A stretch of DNA of 64,000 bases from a bacterium HR35. Its GTDB lineage: Bacteria > Patescibacteriota > Minisyncoccia > UBA6257 > HR35. A model generated the notes under the pieces. The model was not told the origin of the DNA. It ran no database searches and saw only the letters and a program-made list of their open reading frames with translations. The stretch covers positions 2,264 to 66,263 of the forward strand of contig BEIL01000003.1 of NCBI GenBank assembly GCA_002898235.1, read 5' to 3'. The position numbers and the translations under genes are program-made. Below are positions 18,505-62,700 of the stretch, in pieces (the stretch's first letter is position 1; each line of letters starts with the position of its first letter).

Positions 18505-18903
18505 TTAAAATCCAGGACCACCTAAAATAAACCTAATAAGGGTAAAAACACCAGAAATTATAAGCAAAACAAAATAACCGACGACTGCTTCTTTAATATA
18601 TCTCCAACCTATATCCCTAGCATCTGGTTTAAAAGTTATTAAAAGAAACCAAAAACCACCAACTATTATTTCTAAAGTTAAAACAAAAGGTGCAATATAA
18701 AGAATAAAATTCCAAATTCTTTGAATAATCTCTAAAATACTAAAAAATTCACAAGCCTCTCTACCAAAAATTCCAGGCGGACAGACACTAATTGTTGCTT
18801 CTGTCCAAGTAACTACTACCTTACCGGGTTCTTTAATTTCAAGTTGGGCAAAAACTAAACTAAAACTTAAAAATAAAATTAAAAATAAAAAAAATTTTTT
18901 CAT
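18505..18903 (-). CDS. Secreted/membrane pilin-like paralogue.
   Basis: Signal peptide, CPPGIFGREAC, then VGGFWFLLITFKPDARDIGWRYIKEAVVGYFVLLIISGV. Confidence 0.45.
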   Translation of the reverse strand: MKKFFLFLILFLSFSLVFAQLEIKEPGKVVVTWTEATISVCPPGIFGREACEFFSILEIIQRIWNFILYIAPFVLTLEIIVGGFWFLLITFKPDARDIGWRYIKEAVVGYFVLLIISGVFTLIRFILGGPGF

Positions 18904-19331: not shown

Positions 19332-19336
19332 TAATC

Positions 19337-19693
19337 TTAATAGTATTTTAATTTCGGACCGAAAAATTCTAAAACTAAATCAAAAATAACACCAATAGAA
19401 AGAAGAAGGATATAACCGATAATAGCTGTTTTAATCATATCTTTTCCTCGGTTGGCTAAATTAGGATAAGGACCACCTAACATCCATAAAAAAGAACCAA
19501 TAACAGAAATGATAACAGCAAACCAAAAGGCAAACCAAATAACAAAAGTTAATAATCTTCTTATATTACTAAATAATTCTGGAAGCTGACAAGGATCGTG
19601 TTCGCATTTAACTAAACCTCCAGAAAAATCTTCTTGAGCTAAAACAAAATTTAAAAGAAAAAAAATAGTGAAAAAAATTATTATTTTATTCAT
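19337..19693 (-). CDS. Secreted/membrane pilin-like paralogue.
   Basis: Signal peptide, CEHDPC, then VIGSFLWMLGGPYPNLANRGKDMIKTAIIGYILLLSIG. Confidence 0.45.
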   Translation of the reverse strand: MNKIIIFFTIFFLLNFVLAQEDFSGGLVKCEHDPCQLPELFSNIRRLLTFVIWFAFWFAVIISVIGSFLWMLGGPYPNLANRGKDMIKTAIIGYILLLSIGVIFDLVLEFFGPKLKYY

Positions 19694-25536: not shown

Positions 25537-28500
25537 AAATAATTATCTTAAATACTTTATTTTAGTTTTCTCTTTAATTCTTTTTTTCTCAATTTTATTT
25601 GTTGGTGAGAAAAAAATCAAAGAAGAGCAAAGCGTTTCTTTTCCTGTATTTTTAGAAAAGGTAAAAAATGGCGAAGTTAAAGAAATTAACTTAGAAAACG
25701 AAACTAATTTTACTTTTATTACTCAAGACAATAAAGTTTTTAATTCGAATAAGGATCCTAATGTTAGCTTTTGGGAAGTCTTCGAAAAAGAAAAAATACC
25801 TAAAGAAGTTTATCTGAAGATTAAAATTACTAAAAAAACAGAAGCTTCTTGGCTTCAACTTTTTCTTTCTTTTCTAATTAATGTTATTCCAATAATAATT
25901 ATTACTTGGTTTATTTGGCAGATTTTCAGACAGACGCAAAGAGGTACAAGTCAAATTTTTTCTTTTGGCAAATCAGGAATTAAAGTTTATAATCCCAATG
26001 ATCCAAATCGAATAACTTTTAAAGATGTAGCTGGCCTTGAAGAAGCTAAACAAGAACTTATGGAAGTTGTTGAATTTTTAAAAAATCCTGAAAAGTTTTT
26101 CAAAATTGGAGCTCGAATTCCTAAAGGAGTATTACTAGTGGGGCCGCCTGGAACCGGGAAAACAATGTTGGCTCAAGCAACAGCCTCGGAGGCTGGTGTT
26201 CCTTTCTTTTATATTTCTGGTTCTGAGTTTGTTGAAATGTTTGTCGGTGTTGGTGCTTCAGTAACTGGAGACACACCGATATTAATAAAAAGAGGAAACA
26301 AAATTAAGTTAACAACTATCGGTAAGTTTGTTGATAAATTTTATCAAGAAAATGAAAGTGGTTTTGTTAAATTTATAGACGGTTATGAAACTTTAGGTTA
26401 TGAACCACAAAGAAAAGTTTATTTTGGCAAGCCAATCTGGACAAATATTCGTGGCGTTTTTAGACATAAAGTCAATGAGATTTATGAAATTTATTTTAGA
26501 GGGGGGAAAATAAAAACAACTGGAGATCATAGCGTTTTTGTCAGAGAAAAAAATAGAATTATTCCTAAAAAAGTAAGTGAATTAAAAGTTGGTGATTGTT
26601 TAGTAAATTTACCATTTAAACGAAGAAGTGTTTTTGTTAAAGGAATAGGCACAACTCATAAGATTTCAACTTTTGATCTTGAAGAAAAAGAGATTTATTT
26701 AGATTTATATGAGAAAGAGTATAATAAAGCTTTGTTTAGTTACCAGTTTGCTTTAGAAAATAGAAATATTTTGAGTCAAGCGAAAATAGGAAAAATTTTA
26801 GGATTAGCGCAGACTACAATTAAAGATTGGCAATTAGGAAGGAGAAGGCCGAAAATATTTTCGAGCTTTAATATCTTTAGATTTAAAATCCCGCCTAAAA
26901 TAAAAGTGGATTTAGATTTGATGAAACTTCTTGGCTATTATGTTGCTGAAGGGAGAACAACAGATTATTTCACTCAATTTGTTTTTGGGATTCATGAAAG
27001 AGATTTGATTAAAGATTGTTCAAATTTAATTGAAAAGATTTTTAACATAACACCCCATATCAAAGATTGTCCTGAAACTAACTCCTGTCGAATTACTATT
27101 TACTCATCAATTATTAGCAAATTTTTTAAAAAGCACTGTGGTACTGGGGCCAAGAAAAAGCATATTCCTCCTTTCTTGTGGCAAATTCCCTTTCCTTATT
27201 TCAAATCATTTTTAGAAGGTCTTTACAGGGGTGATGGTTACATTACAAAAGAAGGAAAGTTAATTATTACCACAACTTCAAGAAGGTTAGCTTTAGAGCT
27301 TATTTGGCTTTCGGCTCTCCATGGAATTCAAGTTGGACTAAGAAAAACAAAATCGCCTGAAAGAAAAATAAGAGAGAAAATTCTTAAGCCATCTAAATAT
27401 TACCTAGTAATTTTTGGAAAGACATCTAATCCTTTTCTTAAAAATAAAAAGACTTCTCAACCTAAAAAACCAATAATAACAAAAATAATTAAAAAACCCT
27501 ATGATGGTTATGTTTATGACCTTTGTGGTTGTGATAATGAAGCATTTTTTGGAGGAGAAAAACCTATTTTACTTCATAACAGTCGCGTCCGTGATGCATT
27601 TTCTGTTGCTAAAAGAAATCAACCTTGTTTAACAGGTGATACAATTATTACTTTAAGCAATGGAGAAGAAATTACTATTAAAGAGATTTATGAGAAAAAA
27701 TTGATTGGCAAAGAGGTTTTAGCTTTTGATGAAAATCTTAATCTTAAAACCGCAAAAATAATTGGTGTTAGCAAAACACCCGATCAAGAAATATTAAAAA
27801 TATCTACAATCATCGACACCATAAAATTAACTCCCGATCATCTTTTACCTACTTTGAAAGATGGCAGGTTAGAATGGGTAGAAGCCAAAGAACTAAAAGA
27901 GGGAGATTTCATAGCTTATCCAAAGAAAATTCCTGAAGAATTTAGGATTCAATCAATAAGAACTCTAACTTTGATTCCTGAAGAAACAAGAATTTACTTC
28001 AAAAACAATTGTCTGCCTAAAATATATGGAAATAAAAAGTATTATCATTCAGTTAAATTAAAAGAAATATATTTAGATAAAATTGACGAAGAAAACATTG
28101 CTTGGATTGCTTTAGGCAAAGGTGGTTTTACTGATTCTTATCTCTACAGAATACCAAAATATTTGAATGAAGATATTCTTTATCTTAAAGGCTTAATAGA
28201 TGGTGATGGTTCTTATCATAAAAACAAATTCAATATTACTTTTGTTAATACTGAGTTGTATCTTCACCAAGAAGTTAAAAAGATTGTTTTAGATAATTTT
28301 GGAATTTCTGCGAAGACTTATAAAAACAAAAAATATTATCGCAATCTTCCTCAAGGGAAACCACCTCAAAATCTTAAAGATTGTTATACCACTCATATTA
28401 ATAACAAGTTAGTTAAAATCATCCTGAAAAACATTGATGAGATTCTTCTTTCTTTACCAAACAATCTTATAGCTGCTTGGATAAGGGGCATTTTTGATAG

Positions 28501-30151
28501 TGATGGTTATGTAGCCAGTATCAAAAATCATCCCAAGATTGTAATTACTTCTACTGACGAAACGTTGAACAAAAAAATTAGATCTGCTTTATTAAGATTA
28601 GGAATAATTGGCTATTGCACTGCTTCTAATAATTTTGGTAATATTGAAATTACAGGAAAGGAAAATATTAAACGTTTTAGAGAAATAGTTGGCTCTAATC
28701 ATCCTAAGAAATTGCAGAGATTAAAAAATTTAAATTTAGAAGGAGTAAGATTTTGGCGCTTAAATCAGATTCCATTAGGTTTGTTGCTTAAAGAAGCTAG
28801 GATTTCTTTAGGGATAGGGCAAAGGAGTTTTAAAAATGGGCATATGATTTCTTGTTGGGAAAGAAATATTCATTTACCATCTTTAGAGAATTTGGAAATA
28901 AAAGTTAAAGAAATGGAGAAAATAATTAGTGAAAAAAATTTATCTCCAACTCAAAGCTTTGAAAAATTAAAATCATTTGTCTACGGTGATGTAAGTTGGG
29001 TAAAAATTAAAAAAATTGAAAAAGTAAATCAAAAAGAAGACGTTTATGATCTTATTTTAGATAAATATCATAATTTCATTGCTAATAATCATTTTGTTCA
29101 TAATTGCATTTTGTTCATTGATGAGCTTGACGCTATTGGAAAAATAAGAGGAGCGGGAATTACTGGCGCTCATGAAGAAAGAGAGCAAACATTAAATCAA
29201 ATTTTAGTTGAAATGGATGGTTTTGAAAAAGGAACAAAAGTCGTTGTTTTAGCGGCGACAAATAGACCTGATGTTCTTGATCCAGCTCTTCTTCGTCCAG
29301 GAAGATTTGACCGCAAAATTGTTTTGGATTTGCCTGATATTAAAGCTAGAGAGGAAATTTTAAAAATTCATTTAAGAGATAAAAGAGTTGGTAAAGTTAA
29401 TTTAAGGCAAGTAGCTGAAAGAACTCCTGGTTTTTCTGGAGCTGATTTAGCTAATTTATGTAATGAAGCTGCAATTTTAGCAGCCAGAAGAAACAAAGAA
29501 TTTATCACTCAACAAGAACTTTTAGATTCAATTGAAAAAGTTTTATTAGGTCCAGAAAGAAAAACAAAAGCCTATTCAAAAAAAGAAAAAGAAATTGCTG
29601 CTTATCATGAAGCTGGCCATGCCATTGTTGCTCATTATTTGCCTTATACTAATCCAGTTCAAAAAATTTCAATTATTTCTCGCGGTCGAGCAGGTGGTTA
29701 TACTTTAAAAACACCCCTTGAAGACAGAAGCTTTTATTTTAAGAAAGAATTTTTAGATGAATTGGCTTCAATGCTTGGTGGTTATGCTGCTGAAAAATTA
29801 ATTTTTAACGATATTACTACTGGAGCCAGTAATGATTTAGAAATTGCTACTGATTTAACTAGACAATTAGTAACTAAATTTGGAATGTCAGAAAAACTTG
29901 GTCCAATTTCAATCTCCCAAAAACCAAAAGAATTTGTTTTAGAAAAAGAGTACTCTGAAAAAACAGCTGAACTTATCGATGAAGAAGTAAAAAATATTAT
30001 TCACCAAGCATTAGAAAGAGCAACAAAGGTTTTAGAAATTAAAAAAGATAAATTAGAAAAAGTTGCTCAAGTTTTAATCAAAAAAGAAGTGATTGAGAAA
30101 AAACAATTTGAGAGATTAGTTGGCGAGAAAAAAGGAAGTTTAAATATTTAA
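25526..30151 (+). CDS. ftsH: ATP-dependent zinc metalloprotease FtsH, interrupted by two in-frame inteins; the mature extein is about 607 aa.
   Basis: Walker A GPPGTGKT, the FVEMFVGVGA | SRVRD | CILFIDELDA extein blocks, the HEAGHA zinc site and an N-terminal TM anchor; a 1541-aa ORF. Confidence 0.9.
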   Translation: MMLRNNYLKYFILVFSLILFFSILFVGEKKIKEEQSVSFPVFLEKVKNGEVKEINLENETNFTFITQDNKVFNSNKDPNVSFWEVFEKEKIPKEVYLKIKITKKTEASWLQLFLSFLINVIPIIIITWFIWQIFRQTQRGTSQIFSFGKSGIKVYNPNDPNRITFKDVAGLEEAKQELMEVVEFLKNPEKFFKIGARIPKGVLLVGPPGTGKTMLAQATASEAGVPFFYISGSEFVEMFVGVGASVTGDTPILIKRGNKIKLTTIGKFVDKFYQENESGFVKFIDGYETLGYEPQRKVYFGKPIWTNIRGVFRHKVNEIYEIYFRGGKIKTTGDHSVFVREKNRIIPKKVSELKVGDCLVNLPFKRRSVFVKGIGTTHKISTFDLEEKEIYLDLYEKEYNKALFSYQFALENRNILSQAKIGKILGLAQTTIKDWQLGRRRPKIFSSFNIFRFKIPPKIKVDLDLMKLLGYYVAEGRTTDYFTQFVFGIHERDLIKDCSNLIEKIFNITPHIKDCPETNSCRITIYSSIISKFFKKHCGTGAKKKHIPPFLWQIPFPYFKSFLEGLYRGDGYITKEGKLIITTTSRRLALELIWLSALHGIQVGLRKTKSPERKIREKILKPSKYYLVIFGKTSNPFLKNKKTSQPKKPIITKIIKKPYDGYVYDLCGCDNEAFFGGEKPILLHNSRVRDAFSVAKRNQPCLTGDTIITLSNGEEITIKEIYEKKLIGKEVLAFDENLNLKTAKIIGVSKTPDQEILKISTIIDTIKLTPDHLLPTLKDGRLEWVEAKELKEGDFIAYPKKIPEEFRIQSIRTLTLIPEETRIYFKNNCLPKIYGNKKYYHSVKLKEIYLDKIDEENIAWIALGKGGFTDSYLYRIPKYLNEDILYLKGLIDGDGSYHKNKFNITFVNTELYLHQEVKKIVLDNFGISAKTYKNKKYYRNLPQGKPPQNLKDCYTTHINNKLVKIILKNIDEILLSLPNNLIAAWIRGIFDSDGYVASIKNHPKIVITSTDETLNKKIRSALLRLGIIGYCTASNNFGNIEITGKENIKRFREIVGSNHPKKLQRLKNLNLEGVRFWRLNQIPLGLLLKEARISLGIGQRSFKNGHMISCWERNIHLPSLENLEIKVKEMEKIISEKNLSPTQSFEKLKSFVYGDVSWVKIKKIEKVNQKEDVYDLILDKYHNFIANNHFVHNCILFIDELDAIGKIRGAGITGAHEEREQTLNQILVEMDGFEKGTKVVVLAATNRPDVLDPALLRPGRFDRKIVLDLPDIKAREEILKIHLRDKRVGKVNLRQVAERTPGFSGADLANLCNEAAILAARRNKEFITQQELLDSIEKVLLGPERKTKAYSKKEKEIAAYHEAGHAIVAHYLPYTNPVQKISIISRGRAGGYTLKTPLEDRSFYFKKEFLDELASMLGGYAAEKLIFNDITTGASNDLEIATDLTRQLVTKFGMSEKLGPISISQKPKEFVLEKEYSEKTAELIDEEVKNIIHQALERATKVLEIKKDKLEKVAQVLIKKEVIEKKQFERLVGEKKGSLNI
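26258..27580 (+). mobile_element. Intein 1 in FtsH (441 aa; Ser1 ... His-Asn, +1 Ser) with a LAGLIDADG-type homing-endonuclease domain.
   Basis: Starts with SVTGDTPIL (block A with Ser as the nucleophile) and ends ILLHN|SRVRD. LAGLIDADG-like motifs are LLGYYVAEGRT and LEGLYRGDGYI. It is inserted between FtsH GVGA and SRVRD. Confidence 0.75.
27626..29104 (+). mobile_element. Intein 2 in FtsH (493 aa; Cys1 ... His-Asn, +1 Cys) with a LAGLIDADG homing-endonuclease domain.
   Basis: Starts with CLTGDTIITL (classic block A) and ends FVHN|CILFIDELDA. LAGLIDADG motifs are LKGLIDGDGSY and WIRGIFDSDGYV. It is inserted immediately before the Walker B region. Confidence 0.8.
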
Positions 30152-46312: not shown

Positions 46313-46945
46313 TTAAATTCTCTTTTTTATTTCATTTAAAAGCGACCAGAGGGTATGATAGTAATTTCTTTTTGGGCCTAAAAATAAATAGCTTCTTTTA
46401 GGTTGATTAACAAAACCTAAAGCTAATTCTCCTGTCTTAGAAATCTTTATTTCTTTTCCTATTTTAATCCCTATATCTTCTGAAATTAAATCAAAAGTAG
46501 ACAACAAATATTCAATCAAATCTAGGGCATCAACTAAGCTTTCTTTTTTCTGAGCTAAGCCATCAGCTAAATAATTTAATCCTTTCAAGAAGCTTTTTCT
46601 ATTCTCCTCGATAACTATTAAAGCGCTTCTTGAAAAATAAAGGTATTTTTTAATGCTTTCTTCCAAATTTTGGTAATTTAATTTTATTTCTGGATTTAAG
46701 TTAAAACCAAAAAGATAATACTTCCAACCTTTATCAGAGGGCAATCTACCCTTGAAATCATATGAATTAAGAATTAAACCTTTTTTAGCCAATCTTCGAA
46801 AATATAGCCTTAAGAGCGGAGGGGAAAATTTAAAATTTAATGTCTTGGCTAAATATTTAGAGCCAATAGGTCTATTTTTTTTAAGATAACATCTAACAAA
46901 ATGATAAAAGATAAATCTTTCTTTAGGTTGAAGCATTTTAATCAA
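46313..46945 (-). CDS. hrcA: Heat-inducible transcription repressor HrcA, short form (210 aa versus about 340).
   Basis: N-terminal winged helix SPPLLRLYFRRLAKKGLILNSYDFKGRLPSDKGWKYY aligns with HrcA SSATIRNEMADLEELGLL..PHTSAGRVPTDKGYRYYV; it is the first gene of the grpE-dnaK-dnaJ operon. Confidence 0.65.
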   Translation of the reverse strand: MIKMLQPKERFIFYHFVRCYLKKNRPIGSKYLAKTLNFKFSPPLLRLYFRRLAKKGLILNSYDFKGRLPSDKGWKYYLFGFNLNPEIKLNYQNLEESIKKYLYFSRSALIVIEENRKSFLKGLNYLADGLAQKKESLVDALDLIEYLLSTFDLISEDIGIKIGKEIKISKTGELALGFVNQPKRSYLFLGPKRNYYHTLWSLLNEIKKRI

Positions 46946-47535: not shown

Positions 47536-47739
47536 ATGCAATTTCAAAATAAAAAAGTTATGTTAGCAGTTGTTGTTGCTGTTTTAGTTGTTTTAGCTGG
47601 TGTAACTTATTGGTTTTTCGGCCGAAAATCAGCTTCGGTCCCATCACCAAATTTACCTCCAGCTCCAGAGGTAGTTCCTCAAGAACCAACAGCAACAGAA
47701 ACCCCTTCTTCGCCAGCAACTCCTACTCCTCAGGAGTAA
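47536..47739 (+). CDS. Small membrane-anchored protein with a Pro/Thr-rich extracellular tail.
   Basis: TM helix MLAVVVAVLVVLAGVTYWFF, then PSPNLPPAPEVVPQEPTATETPSSPATPTPQE; a strong terminator follows. Confidence 0.35.
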   Translation: MQFQNKKVMLAVVVAVLVVLAGVTYWFFGRKSASVPSPNLPPAPEVVPQEPTATETPSSPATPTPQE

Positions 47740-47768
47740 TAAAAATTTAAAAAATTAAAAAAAGAAAA

Positions 47769-47799
47769 GGGCGGAGCAATTAACTCCGCCCTTTTCTTT
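47769..47799 (+). terminator. Rho-independent terminator (gggcggag / ctccgccc stem, 7-nt loop, T-rich tail).
   Basis: A GC-rich hairpin in an otherwise AT-rich intergenic region, seen directly. Confidence 0.8.
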
Positions 47800-47853: not shown

Positions 47854-48927
47854 ATGAAAAGTTTAATCGAAGATTTGCTTAGAAATAACTTAAAAGAAAG
47901 AGAGGTTTTGATTATTAAAAAAAGATTTGGTTTAGAAGAGGATGAAGAACCTTATTCTTTGGAAGCCATTGGGAAAAATTTAGGCATTACCCGAGAAAGA
48001 GTCAGACAAATTCAAAACAATGCTCTCCAAAAAATCAAAAAAGCGATAAATGATAATCCGAAAATAAAGGATTTTATTAAAGAAGTAAAAAGCTTGCTTG
48101 AACCCCTAGGAGTTAGAGAAGAAAGAAATTTTTATAAATTGCTAATAGAAAAAAAAATAGTCCGAGAGAGAGAAATTAATTATTTAAAATTTATTTTTAT
48201 TAATCATCAAGAAATTCATTATCATCCTGAAGATAAAGATTTAAACAGCTTCTATGCTAAATCTGAAGATTGGGCATTTTTCTTTCGCCATCTCTTAAAA
48301 AAAATAACGATTTATTTTTTAGAAAATAATAAAGAGATTTTTGAAGAAAATAAAATTTTCGAAATAATTGCTAAAGAGTTAAAAGCTCACTTGGCTGATT
48401 TAGAGCTTCAAGATTATTATGAGATTTTGAGAATTCTCAAGCCAGTTTATAAAAACCCTTTTGGAAAATGGGGATTTATTACCAATCATTTTGTTGTACC
48501 TTCGTCTTTAAAAGAAAAAATTTTAACGATTCTTAAAATTGAGGGCAAACCTCTTCATTTTACTGAAATTTATAATAAAATCTCTCAAGTTAGTGAAATT
48601 AGCGATGAATTTGTTCATCCAGCTTGGAAGAAAAAATATTCACTTGATTCAATTAAAAATGAGCTTATCAGACATCCAGAATTTGTTTTAGTGGGAAGAG
48701 GAATTTATGGTTTGAAAGAATGGGGATTTAAAGAGGGAACAGCTTTTGAACTTCTTAAAGAATTTTTAGCTTCTAAAAAAGAAGTTGATTTTGAAGAATT
48801 GATTGAATTTTTTAAAAATCAGCGTTTTATTAAATTAACAACCTTGAATATTTATCTCTATAGGCTTTTAAAAAGTAGATTTATTAAATTTGAAAAAGGA
48901 AAAATTAAAGTAGTCAAAAATGCTTAA
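47854..48927 (+). CDS. Protein with an N-terminal sigma-70 region 4.2-like HTH fused to a domain of about 290 aa of unknown function.
   Basis: [52 protein letters not shown] versus this genome's own RpoD region 4, [50 protein letters not shown]; the 10-mer [10 protein letters not shown] is identical. Confidence 0.55.
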   Translation: MKSLIEDLLRNNLKEREVLIIKKRFGLEEDEEPYSLEAIGKNLGITRERVRQIQNNALQKIKKAINDNPKIKDFIKEVKSLLEPLGVREERNFYKLLIEKKIVREREINYLKFIFINHQEIHYHPEDKDLNSFYAKSEDWAFFFRHLLKKITIYFLENNKEIFEENKIFEIIAKELKAHLADLELQDYYEILRILKPVYKNPFGKWGFITNHFVVPSSLKEKILTILKIEGKPLHFTEIYNKISQVSEISDEFVHPAWKKKYSLDSIKNELIRHPEFVLVGRGIYGLKEWGFKEGTAFELLKEFLASKKEVDFEELIEFFKNQRFIKLTTLNIYLYRLLKSRFIKFEKGKIKVVKNA

Positions 48928-50257
48928 TTTTATAAACTATTTTTTATCTGATTTTATTAATCTTTTTTTAAATTTTTGGTGGTTAGTTTTACCAGTAATC
49001 TCAACCTACCTTTTTATTGAAAAATACCATCAAGATAAAATAAAAACGTTTGTTAAAGAGAAACTTAAATACAAATTTCTAGAAATTACTTTTCCGGAAG
49101 AGTCAATTAAAAATCCAAGATTAATGGATGAAGTTTTAGCTTCTCTTCATTCAACAGCTACTAAGTTTTCTTCTTTAAAACAATTTTTTACCGGTTCTTT
49201 TCCCTTAGCTTATATTTTTCTTTTAGAATTTCATGATAAAAAAATCAGATTTTTTATTGGTGCTTCTGAATCTCTCTTTCAATTTATTAAAACTTCTTTT
49301 TACAGCAAATACCCAGAAATAAAATTTAAAGAAAGTGAAACGCCACTTAAAAAATTTGATTTTAATCTACCCAATCCTCTTTTTGATGGTCTAATGTTTG
49401 ATGTTTTACCAGAAAACCCTGATTTTGTAATTTTAAAAACTTATAAAAATTTAGAAAAATTACCGCCAGAAGAAAGAATTGATCCAGCTTCTGTTTTTTG
49501 GGAATTAAAAGAAGCTATTTCTAACAAAGAATGGCTTTATTTTATCATTTTTGCCTTACCAGTTTTAGCTGATGATCCTATTTTAGGAAAAAATTGGGTT
49601 GGAGTTTATAAATCTATAATAGATGCAATCATTGGAAAACCAAAACCACCAGCTCCTAAATCATTTGATTATTATCTTCATGAGTTTTTTAAAAATCTTT
49701 TGGCTGAATTTTATAATATTTTTCTTGGTAGTTTTTTTAAAGCAGAACAGCCAATTGAATGGACACCAATTAAACCTCAACCAGCTCCACCTTTTGAATT
49801 TAATATTGGAAAATTAACGCCTGAACAAAAAGAAATTATCGATTTGATTTTAGAAAAAATTAAAAAACCAGGCTACTTAGTTAAAATTGAAGTTCTTTAC
49901 TTAACTCAAAAAATCAATTTTGAAAAAACTAAAAGTTATATTCCTTCTTTAATCCTTTCTGCTTTTAAAAATTTTACTTTTGAAAATTTAGGCAAAATTA
50001 AATTAGAACCCTTTTTTAAAATTTCTTCAACTGAACCACTTTACCAATTTAAAAACTTTCTTTTAACCTTAGCAAGTTTTGATAGTTTAAAAAAACACAA
50101 GGCTCTCATAATTAAAGCTGTTAAATTGACTAAAGATATAGCAGCTCCTAAGATGAAGTTTATTTTAAATACAGAAGAATTAGCGACTATTTTTCATCAC
50201 CCTTTAAAAATCGAAAGTAAAAGAAAAGAGGAATTAGAACCATCTTTCTTAAGCTAA
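48920..50257 (+). CDS. Hypothetical membrane protein (N-terminal TM), translationally coupled to the flanking genes.
   Basis: N-terminal TM helix FWWLVLPVISTYLFI; 8-nt overlap with the upstream gene; no motif recognised. Confidence 0.3.
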   Translation: MLNFINYFLSDFINLFLNFWWLVLPVISTYLFIEKYHQDKIKTFVKEKLKYKFLEITFPEESIKNPRLMDEVLASLHSTATKFSSLKQFFTGSFPLAYIFLLEFHDKKIRFFIGASESLFQFIKTSFYSKYPEIKFKESETPLKKFDFNLPNPLFDGLMFDVLPENPDFVILKTYKNLEKLPPEERIDPASVFWELKEAISNKEWLYFIIFALPVLADDPILGKNWVGVYKSIIDAIIGKPKPPAPKSFDYYLHEFFKNLLAEFYNIFLGSFFKAEQPIEWTPIKPQPAPPFEFNIGKLTPEQKEIIDLILEKIKKPGYLVKIEVLYLTQKINFEKTKSYIPSLILSAFKNFTFENLGKIKLEPFFKISSTEPLYQFKNFLLTLASFDSLKKHKALIIKAVKLTKDIAAPKMKFILNTEELATIFHHPLKIESKRKEELEPSFLS

Positions 50258-50269
50258 AATTATTTAACT

Positions 50270-51766
50270 ATGGAAGAAAGAATTATTTTAGGTAAAATAG
50301 TTTATCGAGAAAGAGAAGAATATTTTTCCTTAACTAAAGAAGATCGACGAAAACATTTTTATGTTATCGGAAAAACTGGAACAGGAAAAACAACTTTGCT
50401 TTTAAATATGTTAATTCAGGACATTAGGAATGGTGAAGGTGTTGGTTTTTTTGATCCCCATGGCGATGCTTTGCTTAAGCTTTTAAAATATATTCCTCAA
50501 GAAAGAATTGAAGATGTTGTTTTTCTTAATCCGGCCGATTTAGATCATCCTTTTGCTTTTAATCCCTTAGAAGATGTTGATTATTATAAAAGAACTTTAG
50601 TTACTTCAATGATTTTGTCTGTTTTTAAAAAAATCTGGCAAGATGCTTGGTCGGCTAGAATGGAATACATTCTTCAAAACTCAATTTTAACTCTTTTAGA
50701 ATATCCTGGCTCTACTCTTTTAGATATTAATCGACTTTTAGCTGATGATTCTTTTAGAAAGAGAGTAGTAAGTCAACTGAAAGATCCAGTAGTTAAAGCT
50801 TTTTGGGAAAATGAATTTGATAAATATCACCTTCAATTTAGAACAGAAGCGATTGCGCCAATTCAAAATAAAGTAGGTCAATTTATTGCTAATCCTCTTT
50901 TAAGAAATATTATTGGTCAAAGAAAAAGTACTGTTGATTTAAGTGAAATTCTTAATGAAGGGAAAATCTTTTTAGTTAACTTAGCTATTGGTCAAATAGG
51001 AGAAATTAGCGCCCAGCTTTTAGGAGGACTATTAATCAATGCTCTTTATTTAAAAGCAATGGAAAGGGTTAATATTCCTGAAGAAGAAAGAAGGGATTTT
51101 TATCTTTATATTGATGAGTTTCAAAATTTTGCTACCGAATCTTTTGTTAATATTCTTTCGGAAGCAAGAAAGTATAGATTCAATCTTATTTTAGCCCATC
51201 AATTTTTAGACCAACTTGATGAATCTTTAAAAAAAGCTATTTTAGGTAATGTTGGTTCAATGATGGTCTTTCGGGTAGGAACAATTGACGCTCAAATTTT
51301 CTTTGAAGAATTCGAAAGATTGGTTTCTTTAGAAAGTTTTCTTAACCTTCCTAGTTATTATGCTTATGTTAAAATTCTTTATCAAAATAAACCTCAAAGG
51401 CCATTTTTGGCTCAAACACTTCCTTTAGAGACAGAACCTGAAGTTAGTTATCTTGATGAAATTCTAAGTTATAATCATCTTAAATATTCAGCTCCTAGAG
51501 AAATAGTTGAAGCTCGAATTAGAAGAATTTATTTATCTTCAAAAAAAGAAGATTTTCTAATTTGTCGTCTTTGTGGAATTCAATTCCCCAATGATGAAGA
51601 TATTGAAATTTGCCCTAATTGTCGTCAAAGAGCTTTTGTTAAAGGAATTAGTTTAAAAGAATTAGCCAAAAAAAATTTTAGCGTTAAAATAAAAAAAGAG
51701 GAAAAAAATAAAAAGGTCGATCTTGATTCAATTTTAAAGAAATTAGAAGGAAATGAAAGTCAGTGA
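50270..51766 (+). CDS. TraD/TraG/VirD4-family (type IV coupling-protein-like) P-loop ATPase, soluble form with a C-terminal zinc ribbon.
   Basis: Walker A VIGKTGTGKTT; a Walker B / TraG-D_C-like block YLYIDEFQNFATESFVNILSEARKYRFNLILAHQFLDQL; a C-terminal CRLCG...CPNCR ribbon; no N-terminal TM helices. Confidence 0.45.
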   Translation: MEERIILGKIVYREREEYFSLTKEDRRKHFYVIGKTGTGKTTLLLNMLIQDIRNGEGVGFFDPHGDALLKLLKYIPQERIEDVVFLNPADLDHPFAFNPLEDVDYYKRTLVTSMILSVFKKIWQDAWSARMEYILQNSILTLLEYPGSTLLDINRLLADDSFRKRVVSQLKDPVVKAFWENEFDKYHLQFRTEAIAPIQNKVGQFIANPLLRNIIGQRKSTVDLSEILNEGKIFLVNLAIGQIGEISAQLLGGLLINALYLKAMERVNIPEEERRDFYLYIDEFQNFATESFVNILSEARKYRFNLILAHQFLDQLDESLKKAILGNVGSMMVFRVGTIDAQIFFEEFERLVSLESFLNLPSYYAYVKILYQNKPQRPFLAQTLPLETEPEVSYLDEILSYNHLKYSAPREIVEARIRRIYLSSKKEDFLICRLCGIQFPNDEDIEICPNCRQRAFVKGISLKELAKKNFSVKIKKEEKNKKVDLDSILKKLEGNESQ

Positions 51767-52310
51767 TTTAGCCAAAGGAGATCATTTGAAATTAGAAGGA
51801 AAAATTTTTGAAGTTGTCGAAATTAAACATTCTCATTTGGGCAGAGGCTCAGCTAATTTAACTTTAGTTTTAAGAAATGTTCAAACTAATCAACGGATTG
51901 AAAAAACCTTTAAACCCGATGAACAAATTGATTATTTGGAAGTTGAAAAAGAAAAATTGGTTTATAGTCATCGAGACAGTCAAAATTTTTATTTTAAAAG
52001 AGATAGCCAGCTTATTTCTTTGCCAACTAAACTCTTTGAAAATTTAAGTAAATTCTTAAAACCGAACTTAGAAGTTTTAGGTTATTTTAGCGAAGATGAA
52101 GAACTTCTTTGGGTAGAGTTGCCTAAAATCGTTGAATACTTAGTTGTTGAAACTGGACCTGACTTTAAAGGAAGTACAGTTCAAAGCAGTTATAAGCCAG
52201 CTAAAATTGAAACTGGCTTAGAAATTAAGGTTCCTTTTTTTATTAAAAATGGCGATTTGATAAAAGTCAATACTGAAACTGGAGAATACGTCGAAAGGGT
52301 ACAAAAATGA
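51753..52310 (+). CDS. efp: Elongation factor P (Arg-type loop).
   Basis: 185 aa, three-domain EF-P layout. The loop HSHLGRGSANLT aligns with E. coli FVKPGKGQAFAR, so the modified Lys34 position is Arg. Confidence 0.75.
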   Translation: MKVSDLAKGDHLKLEGKIFEVVEIKHSHLGRGSANLTLVLRNVQTNQRIEKTFKPDEQIDYLEVEKEKLVYSHRDSQNFYFKRDSQLISLPTKLFENLSKFLKPNLEVLGYFSEDEELLWVELPKIVEYLVVETGPDFKGSTVQSSYKPAKIETGLEIKVPFFIKNGDLIKVNTETGEYVERVQK

Positions 52311-53938
52311 AACTCGATGAACTTCAAAATAAAATTGACATTCTTGAGGTGGTTCAAAAATATGTCAAGCTCAAACGAGTAGGCAAATATTATGCTGGTC
52401 TTTGTCCTTTTCATTCAGAAACTAAACCTTCTTTCTATGTTTCTCCTGAAAGGCAGATTTTTAAATGCTTTGGCTGCGGCGAAGGAGGAAATGTAATCTA
52501 TTTTTTGATGAAAATTGAAAATTTAAGTTTTCGGGAGGTTTTAGAAAAACTTAAGGAAGAATATGGTTTAGAAATAGATAAAATTTCCCAGTCAAAAATT
52601 TCTTCTAAAATTTTAGAAATAAACTATGCGGCCTTAAAATTTTTTCGCCAACAACTTAACACTAACTATCTTGAAGCTAAAAATTATTTAATTGAAAGAG
52701 GATTAACTCAAAAAACAATCGAAGACTTTGAATTAGGTTATTCACCTGGGGGGACAAGTCTAAGAGACTATCTTTACGCCCAAGGTTATTCTTTAGAAGA
52801 ATTAAAACAAGCTGGGCTTTTAGATGAGAACAATTTTGACCGGTTTCAACAAAGAATTATTTTTCCTTTAAGAAATGAGAAAGGTGATTTAGTTGGTTTT
52901 ACTGGTAGGATTTTTCCTGAAAAAGAAAAAGCTCCTAAATATCTCAACACTCCAGAAACTGATGTTTTTAAGAAATCAGAATTTCTCTATGGACTTTTTT
53001 ACTCTAAAGATTATATTTATTCCCAAAAAGAAGCAATTATTGTTGAGGGTCAGATTGATTTTCTTTTAAGTTTTCAAAATGGCTTAAAAAATATTGTTGC
53101 TGTTTCTGGTTCAGCCTTAACTGAAACTCATTTAAGAAAAATTAAAAAATATACTTCCAACTTAGTTTTAGCTTTTGATAATGATGAAGCGGGTTTTAGG
53201 GCTTCATTGCGAGCTAATCTTTTAGCTCAGAAATTAGATTTTCAAGTTTATCAATTGATCTATGACGAGAAAGATTTGGGTGAATTTTTTAAAAACAAAA
53301 GAGATTTAGCTGAAATCAAAAAAATCTACTTTCTTGATTATCTTTTAGAAACCTTAGACAAAAAATTTGGCCAGGGAAATAAAAAAACTTATCTTGAAAT
53401 TTTTTTACCTCAAATCCAAAACCTAAACCTTTCTGAAAAAGATAAATATTTAGATATTTTGTCCCAAAAATTAAATATTCCTAAAGATTTTCTTTTTGAA
53501 GAATTAAAGAAAATGCCGGCTTCTTTAACTTTTTCAGAAGAAGAAAAAATAGTTCCTGTATTGGATTTTGAAAAAAACCTATCTTTAAAAGCTGTTAGTC
53601 TTATTTATGCTTTCAATCTTAATGTTTTTGAAGAGGAATTTATTCCTTTTTTGAGTGAAGAAGCTAAAATTATTTATCTTAAATTTAAGGAAAATAATTT
53701 GACCTTTGAAGAAATAGATGAATTAGAAATGAGAAAGAGATTTTTTGAAGAAACTAGAATTAATCCTCAAAAAGAATGGGAAAAAACTCTAAAAGAGTTA
53801 AAAAGGATCTATTATAAAAAAACCATAGAAAAATTAAAAGAAGAACTGCGGTTTAGCTCCTCAGAGAATTATGATAAAATTATTCAAGAAATCAATTATT
53901 ATCTTCAAGAATTAAGAAAAATTGAAAAAAATGGCTAA
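52307..53938 (+). CDS. dnaG: DNA primase.
   Basis: Zinc-binding [13 protein letters not shown]...CFGCGEGGN, a TOPRIM region (EGQIDFL...DNDEAG); ATGA overlap with efp. Confidence 0.85.
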
Positions 53939-55016
53939 AAAATCTTTAAAAATAGATAAAAAGATTAATGCTAAAATCAATTATCTTATTAAGAAAGGGA
54001 AAGAAAAGGGTTTTATTTTAGAAGATGAAATTTTAGATTTATTTCCTACAATTGATGAAAAACTTGAGCTTTTAGAATATATTTATGAAAGATTAGAAAC
54101 TGCTGGAATTGAAATCCAAAGCTCGAATAATCGCTGGGAATTAACTAAAGAAGAAATTGAAAAATATCTAGGTCATGATGATGAACTGATTGATGCTACT
54201 CAAAAATATTTAATGGAAATCTCCCGCTATCCCCTTTTAACTCCAGAAGAAGAAAGAGAATTGGCTAAAAAAGCATCTCAAGGAGATGATGAAGCTCGAG
54301 AAAGATTAATAAAATCAAATTTAAGATTAGTTGTTAGTATTGCTAAGAAATATTTAGGCAAAAGTCGGGGACTTACTTTTTTAGATTTGATTCAGGAAGG
54401 TAATATTGGTTTAGCTAAAGCCGTTGATAAATTTGACTGGCGTCGAGGTTTAAAATTTTCTACCTATGCCACTTATTGGATTCGGCAAGCAATTACTCGA
54501 GCTTTATCTGATCAAGCTCGAACTATTAGATTACCTGTTCATATTATTGAAACTTTTTATAAATTAAATAAAGTTAAAAAAAGATTAAGTAGTATTCTTA
54601 ATCGAGAACCAACTCCTGAAGAATTAGCTTCAGAAATAGGCTTACCTACAAATAAAGTTCAAAAACTCCTTAAATATCTTCATGATACTATTTCTTTGGA
54701 AACACCTATTGGTGATGAAGGTGATGCTTTACTTAAAGAGTTAATTCCTGATTTAAATACCGAAACTCCAGACAAAGTAGCAGCTATAAGCGTTTTAAAA
54801 GAACAACTAAAAAAAGCTATTTTAGATTTAAGTCCCAAAGAAAGAAAGATTATTAGCTTGCGTTATGGTTTAGAAGATGGAACCGAACATACCTTAGAAG
54901 AGATTGGAAGGATTTTTGGAATTACTCGCGAAAGAGTAAGACAAATTGAAATTAGAGCTTTAGAAAAACTTAGAAATCATCCATTAATTCTTAAAATTAA
55001 AGAACAAGAGTTTTAA
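53922..55016 (+). CDS. rpoD: RNA polymerase sigma factor RpoD (primary sigma-70).
   Basis: Region 2 [16 protein letters not shown]...[16 protein letters not shown], region 3 and region 4.2; the classic dnaG-rpoD arrangement. Confidence 0.9.
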
Positions 55017-56107
55017 TGTTTTATCGGAAATATCGACCAAAAAATTTCAGTGAGGTAGTTGGCCAAGAAATTGTTATTAGAATTTTAAAAAATATGATAA
55101 AAAGAGGTGAGATTTTACATGGCTATCTTTTTGCTGGTGAACGAGGAACAGGCAAAACCACTGTAGCCCGAATTTTTGCCAAAACAGTTAATTGTCTTAA
55201 TCCTCAGGAAGGAGAAGCTTGTGAAAAATGTCAAATTTGTAAATTATGGAACGAGGGTAAGTTTTTAGATATTGTCGAAATTGATGCTGCTTCTCATAGA
55301 AAAATCGATGATGTCAGAAGTCTTCAAGAACATATTGGCTTTAAACCTCTTCAAGGTAAATACAAGGTTTTTATTATTGATGAAGCTCATATGTTAACCG
55401 AAGAAGCTTTTAACGCTCTTTTAAAAACTTTAGAAGAACCACCAAAGCATGTAATTTTTATTTTAGCTACCACTGAACCAAGTAAAATTCCCCCAACTAT
55501 TCTTTCTCGGCTTCAAAGATTGGATTTTAAAAGAATTTCTCTGCCTCAAATTGTTGAAAAACTAAAAAAAATTTTAGAAAACGAAAAAATCGATTATGAA
55601 GAAGAGGCTTTATATTTAATTGCTGAAGAGGCTGAGGGTTCTTTAAGAGATGCTGAAACTTTATTAGAAAAAGTAGTTATTAGTTTAAATCCTGAACCAA
55701 AAATTACTCAAGATTATGTTGCTGAATTTTTGGGTCAAATTAGTACTAACAAGGTTTTGAATTTTTTAGATAATCTTTTAGACAAAAAAACAGATTTAGC
55801 TTTAGAATTTTTACATGATATTTACAAAAACGGCTATGAAATATCCAGTTTTTTAAAATCATTAATTAAAATTTTAAAAGAGATTATTTTTATCAAAGTT
55901 AATAAAAATTTTGCTAAACATCTCTCCAGCGAAAGATCTTCTGAAATAACTGATAAAATGATTGAAATTGCTTCTAAAGCTGATTTGGAAACTTTTAAAA
56001 AACTTTTAAGACTCTTTTTTGAAGCTGACTCTCTTTTGAGAAAAGAACCACCTCATCCTCTCCTTCCTTTGGAAATAGCTGTTATTGAGTTCGTTAGTTT
56101 AAGGTGA
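55016..56107 (+). CDS. dnaX: DNA polymerase III subunit gamma/tau, short form (363 aa).
   Basis: FYRKYRPKNFSEVVGQE, Walker A GERGTGKTT, a zinc module CxxC...CxxC, and SRLQRLDF. Confidence 0.8.
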   Translation: MFYRKYRPKNFSEVVGQEIVIRILKNMIKRGEILHGYLFAGERGTGKTTVARIFAKTVNCLNPQEGEACEKCQICKLWNEGKFLDIVEIDAASHRKIDDVRSLQEHIGFKPLQGKYKVFIIDEAHMLTEEAFNALLKTLEEPPKHVIFILATTEPSKIPPTILSRLQRLDFKRISLPQIVEKLKKILENEKIDYEEEALYLIAEEAEGSLRDAETLLEKVVISLNPEPKITQDYVAEFLGQISTNKVLNFLDNLLDKKTDLALEFLHDIYKNGYEISSFLKSLIKILKEIIFIKVNKNFAKHLSSERSSEITDKMIEIASKADLETFKKLLRLFFEADSLLRKEPPHPLLPLEIAVIEFVSLR

Positions 56108-60825: not shown

Positions 60826-60898
60826 CGGGGTGTGGCGCAATGGCTAGCGCGCTGGCATGGGGTGCCAGAGGTTGCGGGTTCGAGTCCCGCCACCCCGA
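60826..60898 (+). tRNA. tRNA-Pro (anticodon GGG).
   Basis: Manual cloverleaf: acceptor cggggtg/caccccg, anticodon stem ctggc/gccag with loop atggggt, T-loop ttcgagt. Confidence 0.7.
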
Positions 60899-60906
60899 AA
60901 AAAATA

Positions 60907-62700
60907 ATGGAAAAGTTTAAGCTTGAAGGAGAAAGAAGAGAAGGAGGGTGGACTAGAAGAAAATTTTTGGCTGCTATGGGTGCTTTCTTAGCGGCTTGCA
61001 GTTTAAAGCTAACCGAGGAATCCCCAATGCCTGAACCGCAATCTGGTATCGAAGAACCAAGGATAAATATGGGTAATCCTGAACTGCCATCTAGCATTGA
61101 GAAACCAAGGATAAATATAGATGATTTAATAAATAGTGGACTATTGAGAAGTGAGGAGAAAAGATTTTTTTCTAATCCTTTTGTTATGGAAGAAAAGTCG
61201 GGGCGGGTAATATGGACTGGAATGCAGCAAACTTTATTAACTATATACGACATTCAGAGATTGGAAACTGAAATTCAGCAAGGAAATTTAGTTTTAGTAG
61301 AATTCACTGAAACAACAGCTGCTCTTTTTAATTTTCCTCCAGCTCAAAGAAGAATTTTAGCTATTAGAACACCATCGGGAAATATTATTCCCGCATACTG
61401 GCTTAATCCCCAAAAATTAGCCCCTAAATTTGAAGAATTATCAAACCTCAAAGTTGTCCAGATAGATGAAGAAACAGTTTTAAAAAATGTTGCTCAAATA
61501 GTTAAAGAGAAAAAATTAGGAGTTGAAATCAAACCGGGAGATCTTATTAGAATTGGTAAAGAGATTAGGCTTCCTAAAAATTGGGCCAATGGGCGGGTTC
61601 TTGGTTTAAGATATGGTGTTGGGGGAAATAATAGAGAATGGATTATTTTTCTATACACGCAAAATGGAGAATATTCGGGCTTTATTACAGTACCACCCAA
61701 CGTTTTTGTAGAAGAAATCTCTAATAAATTGAAAGATTCTTCGTCTCATTATAATCTTAGACACAGTCTGGATGATGTAATTCTTGGAGAATCTTTCTCT
61801 AACAGGCAAATTTCTGGAATAGTTTTTAATAACATACAAAACATATTTAAAAATCTTTCAAACCCAAATCTCCAAGAATTCGAAATAGAAAGATTTCAGT
61901 TTAGAGTGTTAAATAGAATAACCTTAGGAAACTCTAGGACAATGTATGTAGTAGAGATAAGCGAAGAAGGAAGGAGCATTATCGCTACTTTTCATCAAGC
62001 TGGCAATTTTTATCATTTTTACTTGAATAATGCTATATCAAGTAGATTTAGTGGAACCAGAGCTTTATTGAGTGCTCAAGAATATCTATCACAACCATAC
62101 TTTGTTCCTTCAATTTTGGGAATAATTAGAAACCTAACGGCTAAATATAGCAAAATATTAACTGGCCTAACTTTAATTCCTTCTATTTTTTTTGAATTTC
62201 AACATTATTCTGAAATAATGAAAAAGGAAGTAGATTTTTGGGCAAATTTAGACAAAGAAGAAAGAGAAAAATTGTTAGCCTTAGGTACAAAAATTACTAG
62301 CAAAGATGAATCACTTAAGTTTAATTATACTCTTCCAATAACTGGTTTAATACTTATAGATGAAGCAGAATTAGCAAATGCGAAAAATAATACTCGTTTT
62401 GAGTTCCCTGTTTATTTGGTTGAAGGTTTTTTTCCCGATAGAAATCAATTAAAAATCTTTGAACCAGAATCTGAAAGTTTTAACAGCTCTTATTACGGTG
62501 TTGTTGTTTTAAAAGTAGATGAAAAATATTACCTTATAGTTGAAAACGAGAGAGGTTGTTTTTCAATCGATTTGTCTAAAAAAGAGCAAATTTCTGAAGA
62601 GGAATATAAAACTTATCAAAAAGCTGGAATAGAAATCATACATTTAAAAAACGGCAAAATTTTAGTTGTTTTCAACTTAAAACCGGAAGAAAAAAAATAA
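60907..62700 (+). CDS. Hypothetical lipoprotein with an RR-containing signal peptide and a lipobox (start trimmed to the ATG at 60907; the tracked ORF start lies inside tRNA-Pro).
   Basis: MEKFKLEGERREGGWTRRKFLAAMGAFLAAC|S is a twin-Arg-like n-region, an h-region and an LAAC lipobox; an internal tandem repeat EEPRINMGNPELPSS / EKPRINIDDLINSG follows. Confidence 0.4.
   Translation: MEKFKLEGERREGGWTRRKFLAAMGAFLAACSLKLTEESPMPEPQSGIEEPRINMGNPELPSSIEKPRINIDDLINSGLLRSEEKRFFSNPFVMEEKSGRVIWTGMQQTLLTIYDIQRLETEIQQGNLVLVEFTETTAALFNFPPAQRRILAIRTPSGNIIPAYWLNPQKLAPKFEELSNLKVVQIDEETVLKNVAQIVKEKKLGVEIKPGDLIRIGKEIRLPKNWANGRVLGLRYGVGGNNREWIIFLYTQNGEYSGFITVPPNVFVEEISNKLKDSSSHYNLRHSLDDVILGESFSNRQISGIVFNNIQNIFKNLSNPNLQEFEIERFQFRVLNRITLGNSRTMYVVEISEEGRSIIATFHQAGNFYHFYLNNAISSRFSGTRALLSAQEYLSQPYFVPSILGIIRNLTAKYSKILTGLTLIPSIFFEFQHYSEIMKKEVDFWANLDKEEREKLLALGTKITSKDESLKFNYTLPITGLILIDEAELANAKNNTRFEFPVYLVEGFFPDRNQLKIFEPESESFNSSYYGVVVLKVDEKYYLIVENERGCFSIDLSKKEQISEEEYKTYQKAGIEIIHLKNGKILVVFNLKPEEKK

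Follow-up and report, generated by a model that had tools for sequence, protein, structure and literature searches.

A conserved gene triad of Patescibacteria joins a TrwB/VirD4-clade ATPase with a membrane-anchored protein, apparently its detached N-terminal domain, and a dual helix-turn-helix protein

What is an ATPase that resembles type IV coupling proteins (T4CPs) doing in a run of housekeeping genes? The question is raised by a locus of bacterium HR35, a member of the Patescibacteria, on contig BEIL01000003.1 (assembly GCA_002898235.1). We analysed a stretch of 64,000 nucleotides (nt) of this contig (positions 2,264 to 66,263), hereafter the window, and its own numbering is used throughout. 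Two open reading frames (ORFs) reported there were verified on the + strand: a 445-amino-acid (aa) membrane protein (48920..50257) and a 498-aa ATPase (50270..51766). An earlier reading of the sequence alone, hereafter the original prediction, had taken the pair and a distant pilin-like array as hints of a reduced apparatus of the type IV secretion system (T4SS) kind. We find that the pair belongs to a conserved triad, headed by a gene for a 357-aa protein with two helix-turn-helix (HTH) domains (47854..48927, +). With moderate confidence, we propose that this cassette encodes a nucleic-acid translocase that is split, tethered to the membrane and served by a DNA-binding adaptor of its own.

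The 498-aa protein encoded by gene 3 is a P-loop ATPase of the TrwB/VirD4 clade, and its nearest characterised family is that of the T4CPs. The Walker A motif GKTGTGKTT lies at aa 34-42 (nt 50369-50395), the Walker B stretch FYLYIDEFQNF at aa 277-287 (nt 51098-51130, core YLYIDEF at aa 278-284), and a SEARKY...AHQ block at aa 297-315 (nt 51158-51214). The TraG-D_C-like block YLYIDEFQNFATE...RKYRFNLILAHQFLDQL, named in the original prediction together with Walker A, is located at aa 278-315. Pfam gathering cutoffs are passed by TrwB_AAD_bind (35.6 vs 20.5 bits, spanning aa 20-336), TraG-D_C (26.1 vs 22 bits) and T4SS-DNA_transf (24.3 vs 20.1 bits), with modest margins for all three families. 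The Walker A, Walker B and arginine motifs are intact, and the catalytic residues and motifs are invariant among 26 homologues. The AlphaFold2 (AF2) model (predicted local distance difference test, pLDDT, 84.9) has a RecA-like core plus a helical block, which corresponds to an all-alpha insertion at aa 105-230 (nt 50582-50959). Public databases annotate the protein as 'type IV secretion system DNA-binding domain-containing protein'.

The predicted relation to T4CPs is supported by both sequence profiles and fold. TrwB is the top PDB sequence match (phmmer, 1e9r/1gl6, in an alignment covering both Walker motifs) and also the first solved structure by Foldseek (E 4e-12, target TM-score 0.62-0.65), ahead of HerA (5e-12) and then Cag-beta, DndH-C and DotL. 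A profile built from 81 family members aligns with TrwB in hhalign at 96.4% (E 1.3e-9, 269 columns, TrwB 118-393) and runs unbroken through the all-alpha domain; VirB4 proteins are aligned over only 25-75 columns. When HerA/FtsK-type helicases are set against this affiliation, the T4CP matches are at least as good as those to HerA, the FtsK_SpoIIIE match is weak (E 0.044), and T4SS pilins are found in the window.

Two features of the ATPase that had been anticipated from its sequence also held. A simple hydropathy window, which served as the predictor of transmembrane (TM) helices, detects no hydrophobic segment in this protein and two in TrwB, and an N-terminal TM helix is found in none of the 81 family members. 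Near the C-terminus lies a four-cysteine (C4) zinc ribbon, C432-C451 (nt 51563-51622), of which C432, C435, C448 and C451 are each at least 90% conserved in the 26 homologues. In most relatives the ribbon is a 25-residue CxxC-x17-CxxC finger (zf_Tbcl_2), and that of the window is shorter, CxxC-x12-CxxC. Behind it, a basic tail of low conservation makes up aa 456-498.

The 445-aa protein of gene 2 had been predicted to be a translationally coupled TM anchor for the ATPase. A helix at aa 15-33 (nt 48962-49018) does provide a predicted membrane anchor, as the sole hydrophobic segment of the protein and at its N-terminus, and 61 of the 79 members of the partner family carry one such segment. The gene lies close to that of the ATPase without overlapping it (12-nt gap). 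It is also more than an anchor, because its body is an alpha/beta domain of about 400 aa, predicted to be cytoplasmic, that is fused to the ATPase in phages. Counts of lysine plus arginine around the helix in the 79 homologues (0.3 before, 2.9 after) predict, by the positive-inside rule, an N-out/C-in orientation with a cytoplasmic body. Near its C-terminus the protein bears a near-invariant motif, LNTEELATIFHHP (aa 416-428, nt 50165-50203).

Gene 2 was assigned to DUF8128 (PF26449) via annotated homologues, from which the name was read; the window protein matches these over 86-98% of its length, with E-values from 2e-17 upwards. Searches of local Pfam and PDB sequences gave no match for the partner, including with 79 family members at E up to 10. 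Its profile recovers 3,778 representatives of 50%-identity clusters, and each of the top 150 is a protein of 395-547 aa that stands alone. As in the window, the DUF8128 protein and the ATPase are separate in all of these 150, with no single-polypeptide fusion. The AF2 model (pLDDT 88.6) matches the PDB weakly, with top matches that are all TrwK/VirB4 (E 0.011, probability 0.91-0.97).

Phages of Bacillus provide the key to this partnership. In phages G, SPO1 and CP-51, a DUF8128-like half and the ATPase are found in one protein of 825-911 aa. A comparison with predicted viral structures pairs the partner model with the 825-aa gp156 of phage G (E 8.6e-13) and with related proteins from phages JL and Slash. 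Independently, the window ATPase matches phrog_5156 at 200.8 bits (E 6.6e-59) over positions 401-809 of the 824-position profile. Hidden Markov models (HMMs) built from the Patescibacteria families were then compared with the phage proteins, with E-values that are per comparison against a handful of targets. In gp156, the DUF8128 HMM covers aa 48-294 (E 3.5e-24; hhalign 98.6%, aa 7-320) and the ATPase HMM aa 381-790 (E 1.5e-62). In SPO1 gp27.4 the respective profiles give E 5.9e-10 and E 3.3e-30, and in CP-51 gp91 the N-terminal half is matched by hhalign at 75.6% and the ATPase half at E 3.6e-40. The matches of gp156 and gp27.4 stay significant under any reasonable correction, and the N-terminal match of CP-51 is modest. 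The partner motif EELAxIFHxP is kept at the fusion junction, about 60-80 residues ahead of Walker A, where phage G has EMSQFIHLP and SPO1 has LELSKIINVP.

These comparisons indicate that the two proteins are halves of one ancestral or alternative polypeptide, with the DUF8128 protein as the detached N-terminal domain of the ATPase, and that the split point of the window proteins falls at the linker position of the fused form. Strong comparative evidence argues that the two work as a complex and act as one unit, because they are fused in the phage homologues. The TM helix and the zinc ribbon are additions of the Patescibacteria lineage, since the phage fusions have neither.

The genes around the phage fusions also concern DNA transactions. 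SPO1 gp27.4 and the CP-51 homologue adjoin a Replic_Relax relaxase and a partition protein, and gp32 of phage 0105phi7-2, annotated as a DNA helicase or translocase, stands beside ParA/RepB genes. Pathria et al. (2012) gave the homologue in phage 0305phi8-36 the role of coupling ATPase in a 'DNA translocation operon' and noted that its N-terminal domain is TM-less. In phage G, the 825-aa fusion lies next to gp155, a 549-aa VirB4-type ATPase (P-loop_TraG, AAA_10; gp155-gp156, L087 3154-7296). A third architecture of the ATPase clade, outside Bacillus phages, is present in the Microcystis phage Mwe-JY31 (L089 5527-7389, 22-kb record), where a 620-aa protein matches the ATPase HMM (E 1.5e-42) behind a 150-aa N-terminal region without a DUF8128 match; a ParA-like gene is nearby.

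The partner model also matches the fold of gp155 (E 9.5e-6), and the models thereby hint at a relation between the fold of DUF8128 and that of the VirB4 N-terminal domain, though the sequence profiles do not show one. Partner profiles of 39 and 79 sequences were compared with TrwK, TrsE, TrsD and a 60-sequence VirB4 alignment. The hhalign probability stayed below 1% throughout, while the positive control, the ATPase against the VirB4 C-terminal domain, reached 72-75%. Homology of DUF8128 to the VirB4 N-terminal domain or to TrsD was accordingly rejected, the tie to the former being a hint at the level of fold only.

The third member of the cassette, gene 1, which the original prediction had overlooked, overlaps the start of gene 2 with its stop by 8 nt. 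Its protein carries a Sigma70_r4 domain at aa 12-63 (nt 47887-48042; Pfam, 51.9 bits) and a HARE-HTH domain at aa 218-290 (nt 48505-48723), which in the window copy scores 23.9 bits, under the 25.9-bit cutoff. Among its orthologues, the first domain is found in 43/43 and the second in 42/43. Against the PDB, the family profile finds region 4 of primary sigma factors (E 5e-20), and the recognition-helix residues R47, E48, R49, R51 and Q52 (TRERVRQI) are invariant; we take these to be the residues that contact DNA in sigma-70/-35 complexes. The protein also weakly matches the model of the low-GC delta subunit, TIGR04567, and its sole PADLOC match is the sigma-like MzaA.

How stable is this arrangement? 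The 80 related loci that we compared are those most similar to the query, and the synteny fractions describe that neighbourhood rather than the whole phylum. Of 74 informative loci, 50 have the DUF8128 gene directly upstream of the ATPase gene, usually with a gap below 30 nt, and three others have it no more than 2 kb away. Such recurrence of the gene order indicates that the arrangement is not due to chance. An orthologue of gene 1 lies directly upstream of the DUF8128 gene in 48/80 loci, always with both DUF8128 and the ATPase, and it takes the same position on independently retrieved, distantly related contigs (L084-L086). Because gene 1 orthologues hold the same place across loci, the conserved unit is the triad, in the order HTH protein, DUF8128 protein, ATPase.

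The ATPase family is very large, with more than 8,000 clusters at 90% identity and matches in at least 598 species-representative genomes, and it is essentially confined to Patescibacteria. One apparent archaeal homologue, labelled 'Methanomethylia', was rejected, the contig being plainly bacterial (S10 operon, EF-P, PilM). The cassette ATPase matches the 'orphan' T4CP homologues already reported for this phylum: 5,713 VirD4-type homologues in 2,918 of 3,035 Patescibacteria genomes (96%), only 148 of them near virB4, with VirB4 itself in 2,417 genomes (80%) (Quinonero-Coronel et al. 2025). The same authors stated that exaptation of these orphans 'cannot be ruled out'. The cassette behaves as a core gene set, in contrast to islands for secretion or defence and to mobile elements.

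In one subclade, a second, shorter ATPase paralogue (about 430-540 aa, TrwB_AAD_bind-positive) is found within a few kb. Such second copies occur in L045, L052, L054, L057, L061, L068, L069 and L073, and in two further loci the paralogue is placed between the DUF8128 gene and the main ATPase (L044 4657-5976, L047 4651-5958). It may explain the approximately two T4CP homologues per genome found in the literature.

How could such a triad work? In the mechanism that we favour, the DUF8128 protein would bind the ATPase and, via its TM helix, keep a ring-shaped motor attached to the membrane on its cytoplasmic side. The ATPase would assemble into this ring and pump nucleic acid with ATP, as the analogy with TrwB, FtsK and HerA suggests. 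The dual-HTH protein, perhaps together with the zinc ribbon and the basic tail, would select or deliver DNA or possibly RNA, and ATP hydrolysis would then move this substrate. The adaptor role can be likened to that of the relaxosome and accessory proteins of conjugative coupling proteins, and of the gamma and winged-HTH domains of FtsK and TraB. We infer the physical complex, the ring, the nucleic-acid substrate and the direction of transport as the most likely arrangement.

Several observations weigh against this model. About 30% of the related ATPase genes have no adjacent DUF8128 gene, and these partnerless copies instead follow nrdD-nrdG, dnaK, rplC-rplD, a HIT gene, or an ATP-cone gene and then efp; the partnership is therefore not obligatory, or it acts in trans. 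The ring and the nucleic-acid substrate are projected from homologues. The HTH protein, which lacks homology to the phage relaxases and other phage neighbours against which it was compared, could be merely an operon regulator or an RNA-polymerase-binding factor. Curated NCBIfam models of coupling proteins are matched far below their cutoffs (TraD, 51.5 vs 366 bits; further equivalog or subfamily models, 42.9 vs 250 and 36.3 vs 647 bits), and the ATPase is for this reason best regarded, as far as sequence can tell, as a distinct clade and not as an orthologue of TraD, VirD4 or TrsK. The phage operon was dispensable in the laboratory (Pathria et al. 2012), and in S. epibionticum the T4SS is essential and the T4CP homologue is reported to be non-essential; in both cases the phenotype may be subtle, and the S. 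epibionticum 't4cp' may belong to a clade other than that of the window ATPase.

The partnerless copies show a recurrent neighbourhood link to nucleotide metabolism. In L004, L011, L012, L014 and L019, the ATPase is preceded by nrdD-nrdG, the genes for the anaerobic ribonucleotide reductase and its activase, or by a 90-aa stand-alone ATP-cone protein, and a stand-alone ATP-cone gene is also present at the ATPase locus, with no adjacent DUF8128 gene, in L092/L093 (6727-6999).

Could the cassette nonetheless serve secretion? A possible alternative, which we hold only tentatively, is that the T4SS of Patescibacteria has its true coupling protein in this ATPase, which would be encoded apart from virB4 and dock on VirB4/VirB6. 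It would then energise transfer through a VirB2-type pilus, exporting effectors or DNA, or importing host material. T4CPs are the nearest characterised family, their genes are often distant from virB4, and the T4SS of Patescibacteria is of the monoderm FATA class, which includes two-protein coupling proteins. Phage operons also pair the fusion with a VirB4-like protein (gp155 of phage G) or a VirB6-like one (orf203 of 0305phi8-36).

The window itself holds a VirB2-like pilin array, the pilin-like array of the original prediction. Five small, divergent membrane proteins are encoded there in tandem on the - strand (17381..19693), and four of these five ORFs match T4SS_pilin (PF18895) with 47.5, 30.9, 27.4 and 24.1 bits, three of them above the cutoff of 26.6. 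The genome hence encodes T4SS parts, and pilin arrays of this kind have been described for Patescibacteria (PMC12102498). The first array protein (220 aa) resembles a duplicated pilin, with both T4SS_pilin and TrbC matches. The array lies next to genes for tRNA-Ser/Glu/Leu (16884..17126) and rpoB/rpoC (9959..16752), and its flanks also include an SBP_bac_8 solute-binding protein, a methyltransferase and gyrA, with no other adjacent T4SS gene.

Against this stands the distribution of the genes. The pilin array is about 30 kb away from the cassette, the scanned ORFs of the window include no VirB4, VirB6 or relaxase, and across the 80 related loci no VirB4, pilin or other T4SS gene comes closer to the cassette than 6 kb. 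The ATPase family moreover retains a mean column identity of 56% across classes, a high value for part of a T4SS. The phylum has almost no relaxases, and T4CP homologues are more widespread than VirB4, with the few near virB4 (148 of 5,713) as given above. In S. epibionticum, the essential T4SS cluster has no recognisable coupling protein (Wang et al. 2023), and the essentiality of that system is not shared by the T4CP homologue. The idea that the array and the cassette form one reduced T4SS is thus not upheld. The clade of the motor would favour docking on a T4SS channel, and its distribution would favour independent action; we regard the two as roughly equal in probability.

A second alternative dispenses with secretion. 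The cassette might be a housekeeping DNA pump of the FtsK/SpoIIIE/TraB kind that acts in segregation, dimer clearance or chromosome tethering, with the sigma-r4/HARE-HTH protein as the equivalent of a sequence-reading gamma domain. The anchor, ring ATPase and HTH reader of FtsK and TraB would here be spread over three proteins of a near-universal, highly conserved module. This module occupies core operon sites (dnaG, rpoD, dnaX, efp, ribosomal proteins, dnaK, nrdDG), and its phage relatives stand beside partition and replication genes. We nevertheless consider it unlikely, given that the ATPase is T4CP-like with a poor FtsK_SpoIIIE match and that the non-essentiality reported in S. epibionticum sits badly with a central role in the cell cycle. 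Replacement of FtsK is further weakened by the annotated ftsK of at least one Patescibacterium, TM7x, which leaves no obvious gap to fill.

There is also a small chance that the triad is the inner-membrane engine by which host nucleic acid is imported behind a T4SS pilus. The HTH protein and the zinc ribbon would then be the nucleic-acid receptor, and the DUF8128 protein a membrane or channel adaptor. Acquisition of host RNA/DNA has recently been reported for a cultivated member of the Patescibacteria, and import, if true, would be the missing mechanism for it. It would also account for the near-universal retention of the gene in nucleotide auxotrophs, sometimes by an nrdDG or ATP-cone gene.

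We give little credence to a transcription-linked remodeller, in which the HTH protein would bring RNA polymerase to the membrane-bound ATPase by contacting it through sigma region 4 (beta-flap) and the delta-subunit-like HARE-HTH domain. Both domains are known from RNA-polymerase subunits, the protein matches primary sigma factors and, weakly, TIGR04567, and the cassette is probably co-transcribed with rpoD in this genome. Yet the adjacency to rpoD is not conserved among related loci, the DNA-contacting residues of region 4.2 are all kept and fit plain DNA binding equally well, and we know of no T4CP-clade ATPase that acts on RNA polymerase.

A role in anti-phage defence, as a module of the MADS, Dnd or HerA-effector type that senses or processes invading DNA, is very improbable. 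Its best argument is the strongest PADLOC match of the ATPase, mad8 (63.6 bits), with weaker matches to HerA and DndH and with DndH-C and several HerA defence complexes among the fold matches; PADLOC finds no match for the DUF8128 partner. The mad profiles were built from HHpred-to-PDB alignments, so that this top score reflects a shared fold. MADS companion genes are missing, the neighbours being the HTH and DUF8128 genes, efp and dnaG, and neither this site nor the related loci have a gene for a methyltransferase, nuclease, SIR2 or other effector next to the cassette. A near-universal gene with housekeeping surroundings, outside any variable island and with unshifted base composition, does not fit such a module either. 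A passively carried remnant of an integrated conjugative or phage element, which the fused homologues of Bacillus phages and the T4CP-type domains typical of mobile elements might suggest, is equally improbable in view of a site that shows no integrase or relaxase, no repeats and no tRNA-flanked island, of a guanine-plus-cytosine (GC) content of 26-29% equal to that of the flanks, of intact and strongly conserved catalytic motifs, and of a housekeeping position conserved across many classes.

The setting of the cassette agrees with the housekeeping surroundings proposed originally. GC content is about 29% throughout the window, with no compositional break at the cassette. Upstream, on the minus strand, lie hsp20, an hrcA-like ORF, grpE, dnaK and dnaJ. 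Downstream, efp-dnaG-rpoD-dnaX (51753..56107, +; from the ORF list and the Pfam annotation of an identical contig) abut or overlap each other, and efp overlaps the stop of the ATPase gene by 14 nt. A scan of the + strand (47854-56107) revealed no terminator-like site until past dnaX. Since the genes abut or overlap without an intervening terminator, the triad is probably co-transcribed with efp-dnaG-rpoD-dnaX in this genome. These four genes are outside the conserved module, and in most related loci efp is not next to the ATPase. On the other side, a GC-rich palindromic hairpin between T/A runs (47761..47799, not assigned to a strand; perfect 17-bp stem, 8 GC pairs) probably acts as a bidirectional terminator that closes an upstream 67-aa ORF, and it probably marks the 5' boundary of the cassette transcription unit.

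The 67-aa ORF (47536..47739, +), flanked by the divergent heat-shock operon and the cassette, encodes one hydrophobic helix and a tail rich in Pro/Thr/Ser, and no homologue was found among the 80 related loci. Between hsp20 and grpE, the usual position of hrcA, is a 210-aa ORF (46313..46945, -) to which the annotation of the identical contig assigns no Pfam family and which may be a short, divergent HrcA-like repressor. Elsewhere in the window, an FtsH gene (25526..30151, +) encodes 1,541 aa, with an AAA domain interrupted by intein sequence; it matches Intein_splicing in two stretches, LAGLIDADG_3 in three stretches, and Hom_end, and probably carries two inteins with homing endonucleases. A 622-aa ORF (60832..62700, +) with a GTG start has no Pfam match, and its true start is probably further downstream, because the listed 5' end overlaps tRNA-Pro (60826..60898).

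Parts of this picture were already known: the orphan T4CP homologues are published, DUF8128 is registered in Pfam, and the phage proteins have been discussed once. In the searchable literature we found no description of the conserved triad or of its sigma-r4/HARE-HTH partner, of DUF8128 as a detached N-terminal ATPase domain, or of the lineage-specific TM helix and zinc ribbon. The orphan coupling-protein homologues thereby gain a defined architecture, made of a cassette, a detached domain, a TM helix, a zinc ribbon and a dual-HTH protein, and DUF8128 and phrog_5156 receive a first context. The tiny-celled Patescibacteria account for a large share of bacterial diversity and are unable to make their own nucleotides. 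A vague annotation is here turned into specific hypotheses that are testable in now genetically tractable members of the group.

Among known systems, the T4CPs share with the window ATPase the clade, the inserted all-alpha domain, Walker A, the IDE Walker B and the RK...Q block, as well as a C-terminal extension, plausibly for recognition of a substrate or adaptor. Unlike them, the window ATPase has no N-terminal TM domain of its own and has an added C4 zinc ribbon, a separate protein supplies the 400-aa N-terminal domain, and the cassette is chromosomal, near-universal and highly conserved, with no adjacent relaxase or T4SS genes. T4CPs without an N-terminal TM domain are known, namely TraJ and TrsK. 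In pIP501 (TraI/TraJ) and pGO1 (TrsJ/TrsK), a soluble T4CP ATPase is encoded directly downstream of a small membrane protein, and TraI has been proposed to recruit TraJ to the membrane. For pGO1 we verified that TrsK has no TM helix and that the overlapping upstream TrsJ has two. Like the Patescibacteria T4SS, these two-protein coupling systems are of the FATA class. TraI and TrsJ are set apart from DUF8128 by size and architecture, being about 150 aa long with two TM helices and no large cytoplasmic domain, and their genes, unlike the cassette, lie inside a T4SS operon on a relaxase-bearing plasmid.

The coupling ATPases of phages (0305phi8-36 orf201, gp27.4, gp91 and gp156; phrog_5156) are by far the closest relatives in sequence. 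They share a DUF8128-like domain followed by the ATPase in the same order with the junction motif kept, a TM-less ATPase, and a DNA-binding protein as neighbour. They differ in being fused and in having no TM helix or zinc ribbon, and the DNA-binding protein next to them, a relaxase of the Replic_Relax/MobC type, has no relation to the sigma-r4/HARE-HTH protein.

VirB4 (TrwK) has a comparable layout, with an N-terminal domain of about 400 aa before a TrwB-like ATPase domain, and the best PDB fold matches of the partner, together with phage G gp155, hint at a VirB4-like fold. Unlike VirB4, neither window protein matches CagE_TrbE_VirB (PF03135) or AAA_10/P-loop_TraG, DUF8128 stays below 1% in hhalign, and for the ATPase the TrwB alignment is better than the VirB4 one and covers more columns. 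FtsK, SpoIIIE and Streptomyces TraB, also of the FtsK-HerA superfamily, offer an analogy in their logic of a membrane anchor, a ring ATPase and an HTH reader of DNA. They belong to another clade, as the E-value of 0.044 indicates, and the cassette of Patescibacteria would distribute these three functions over three proteins.

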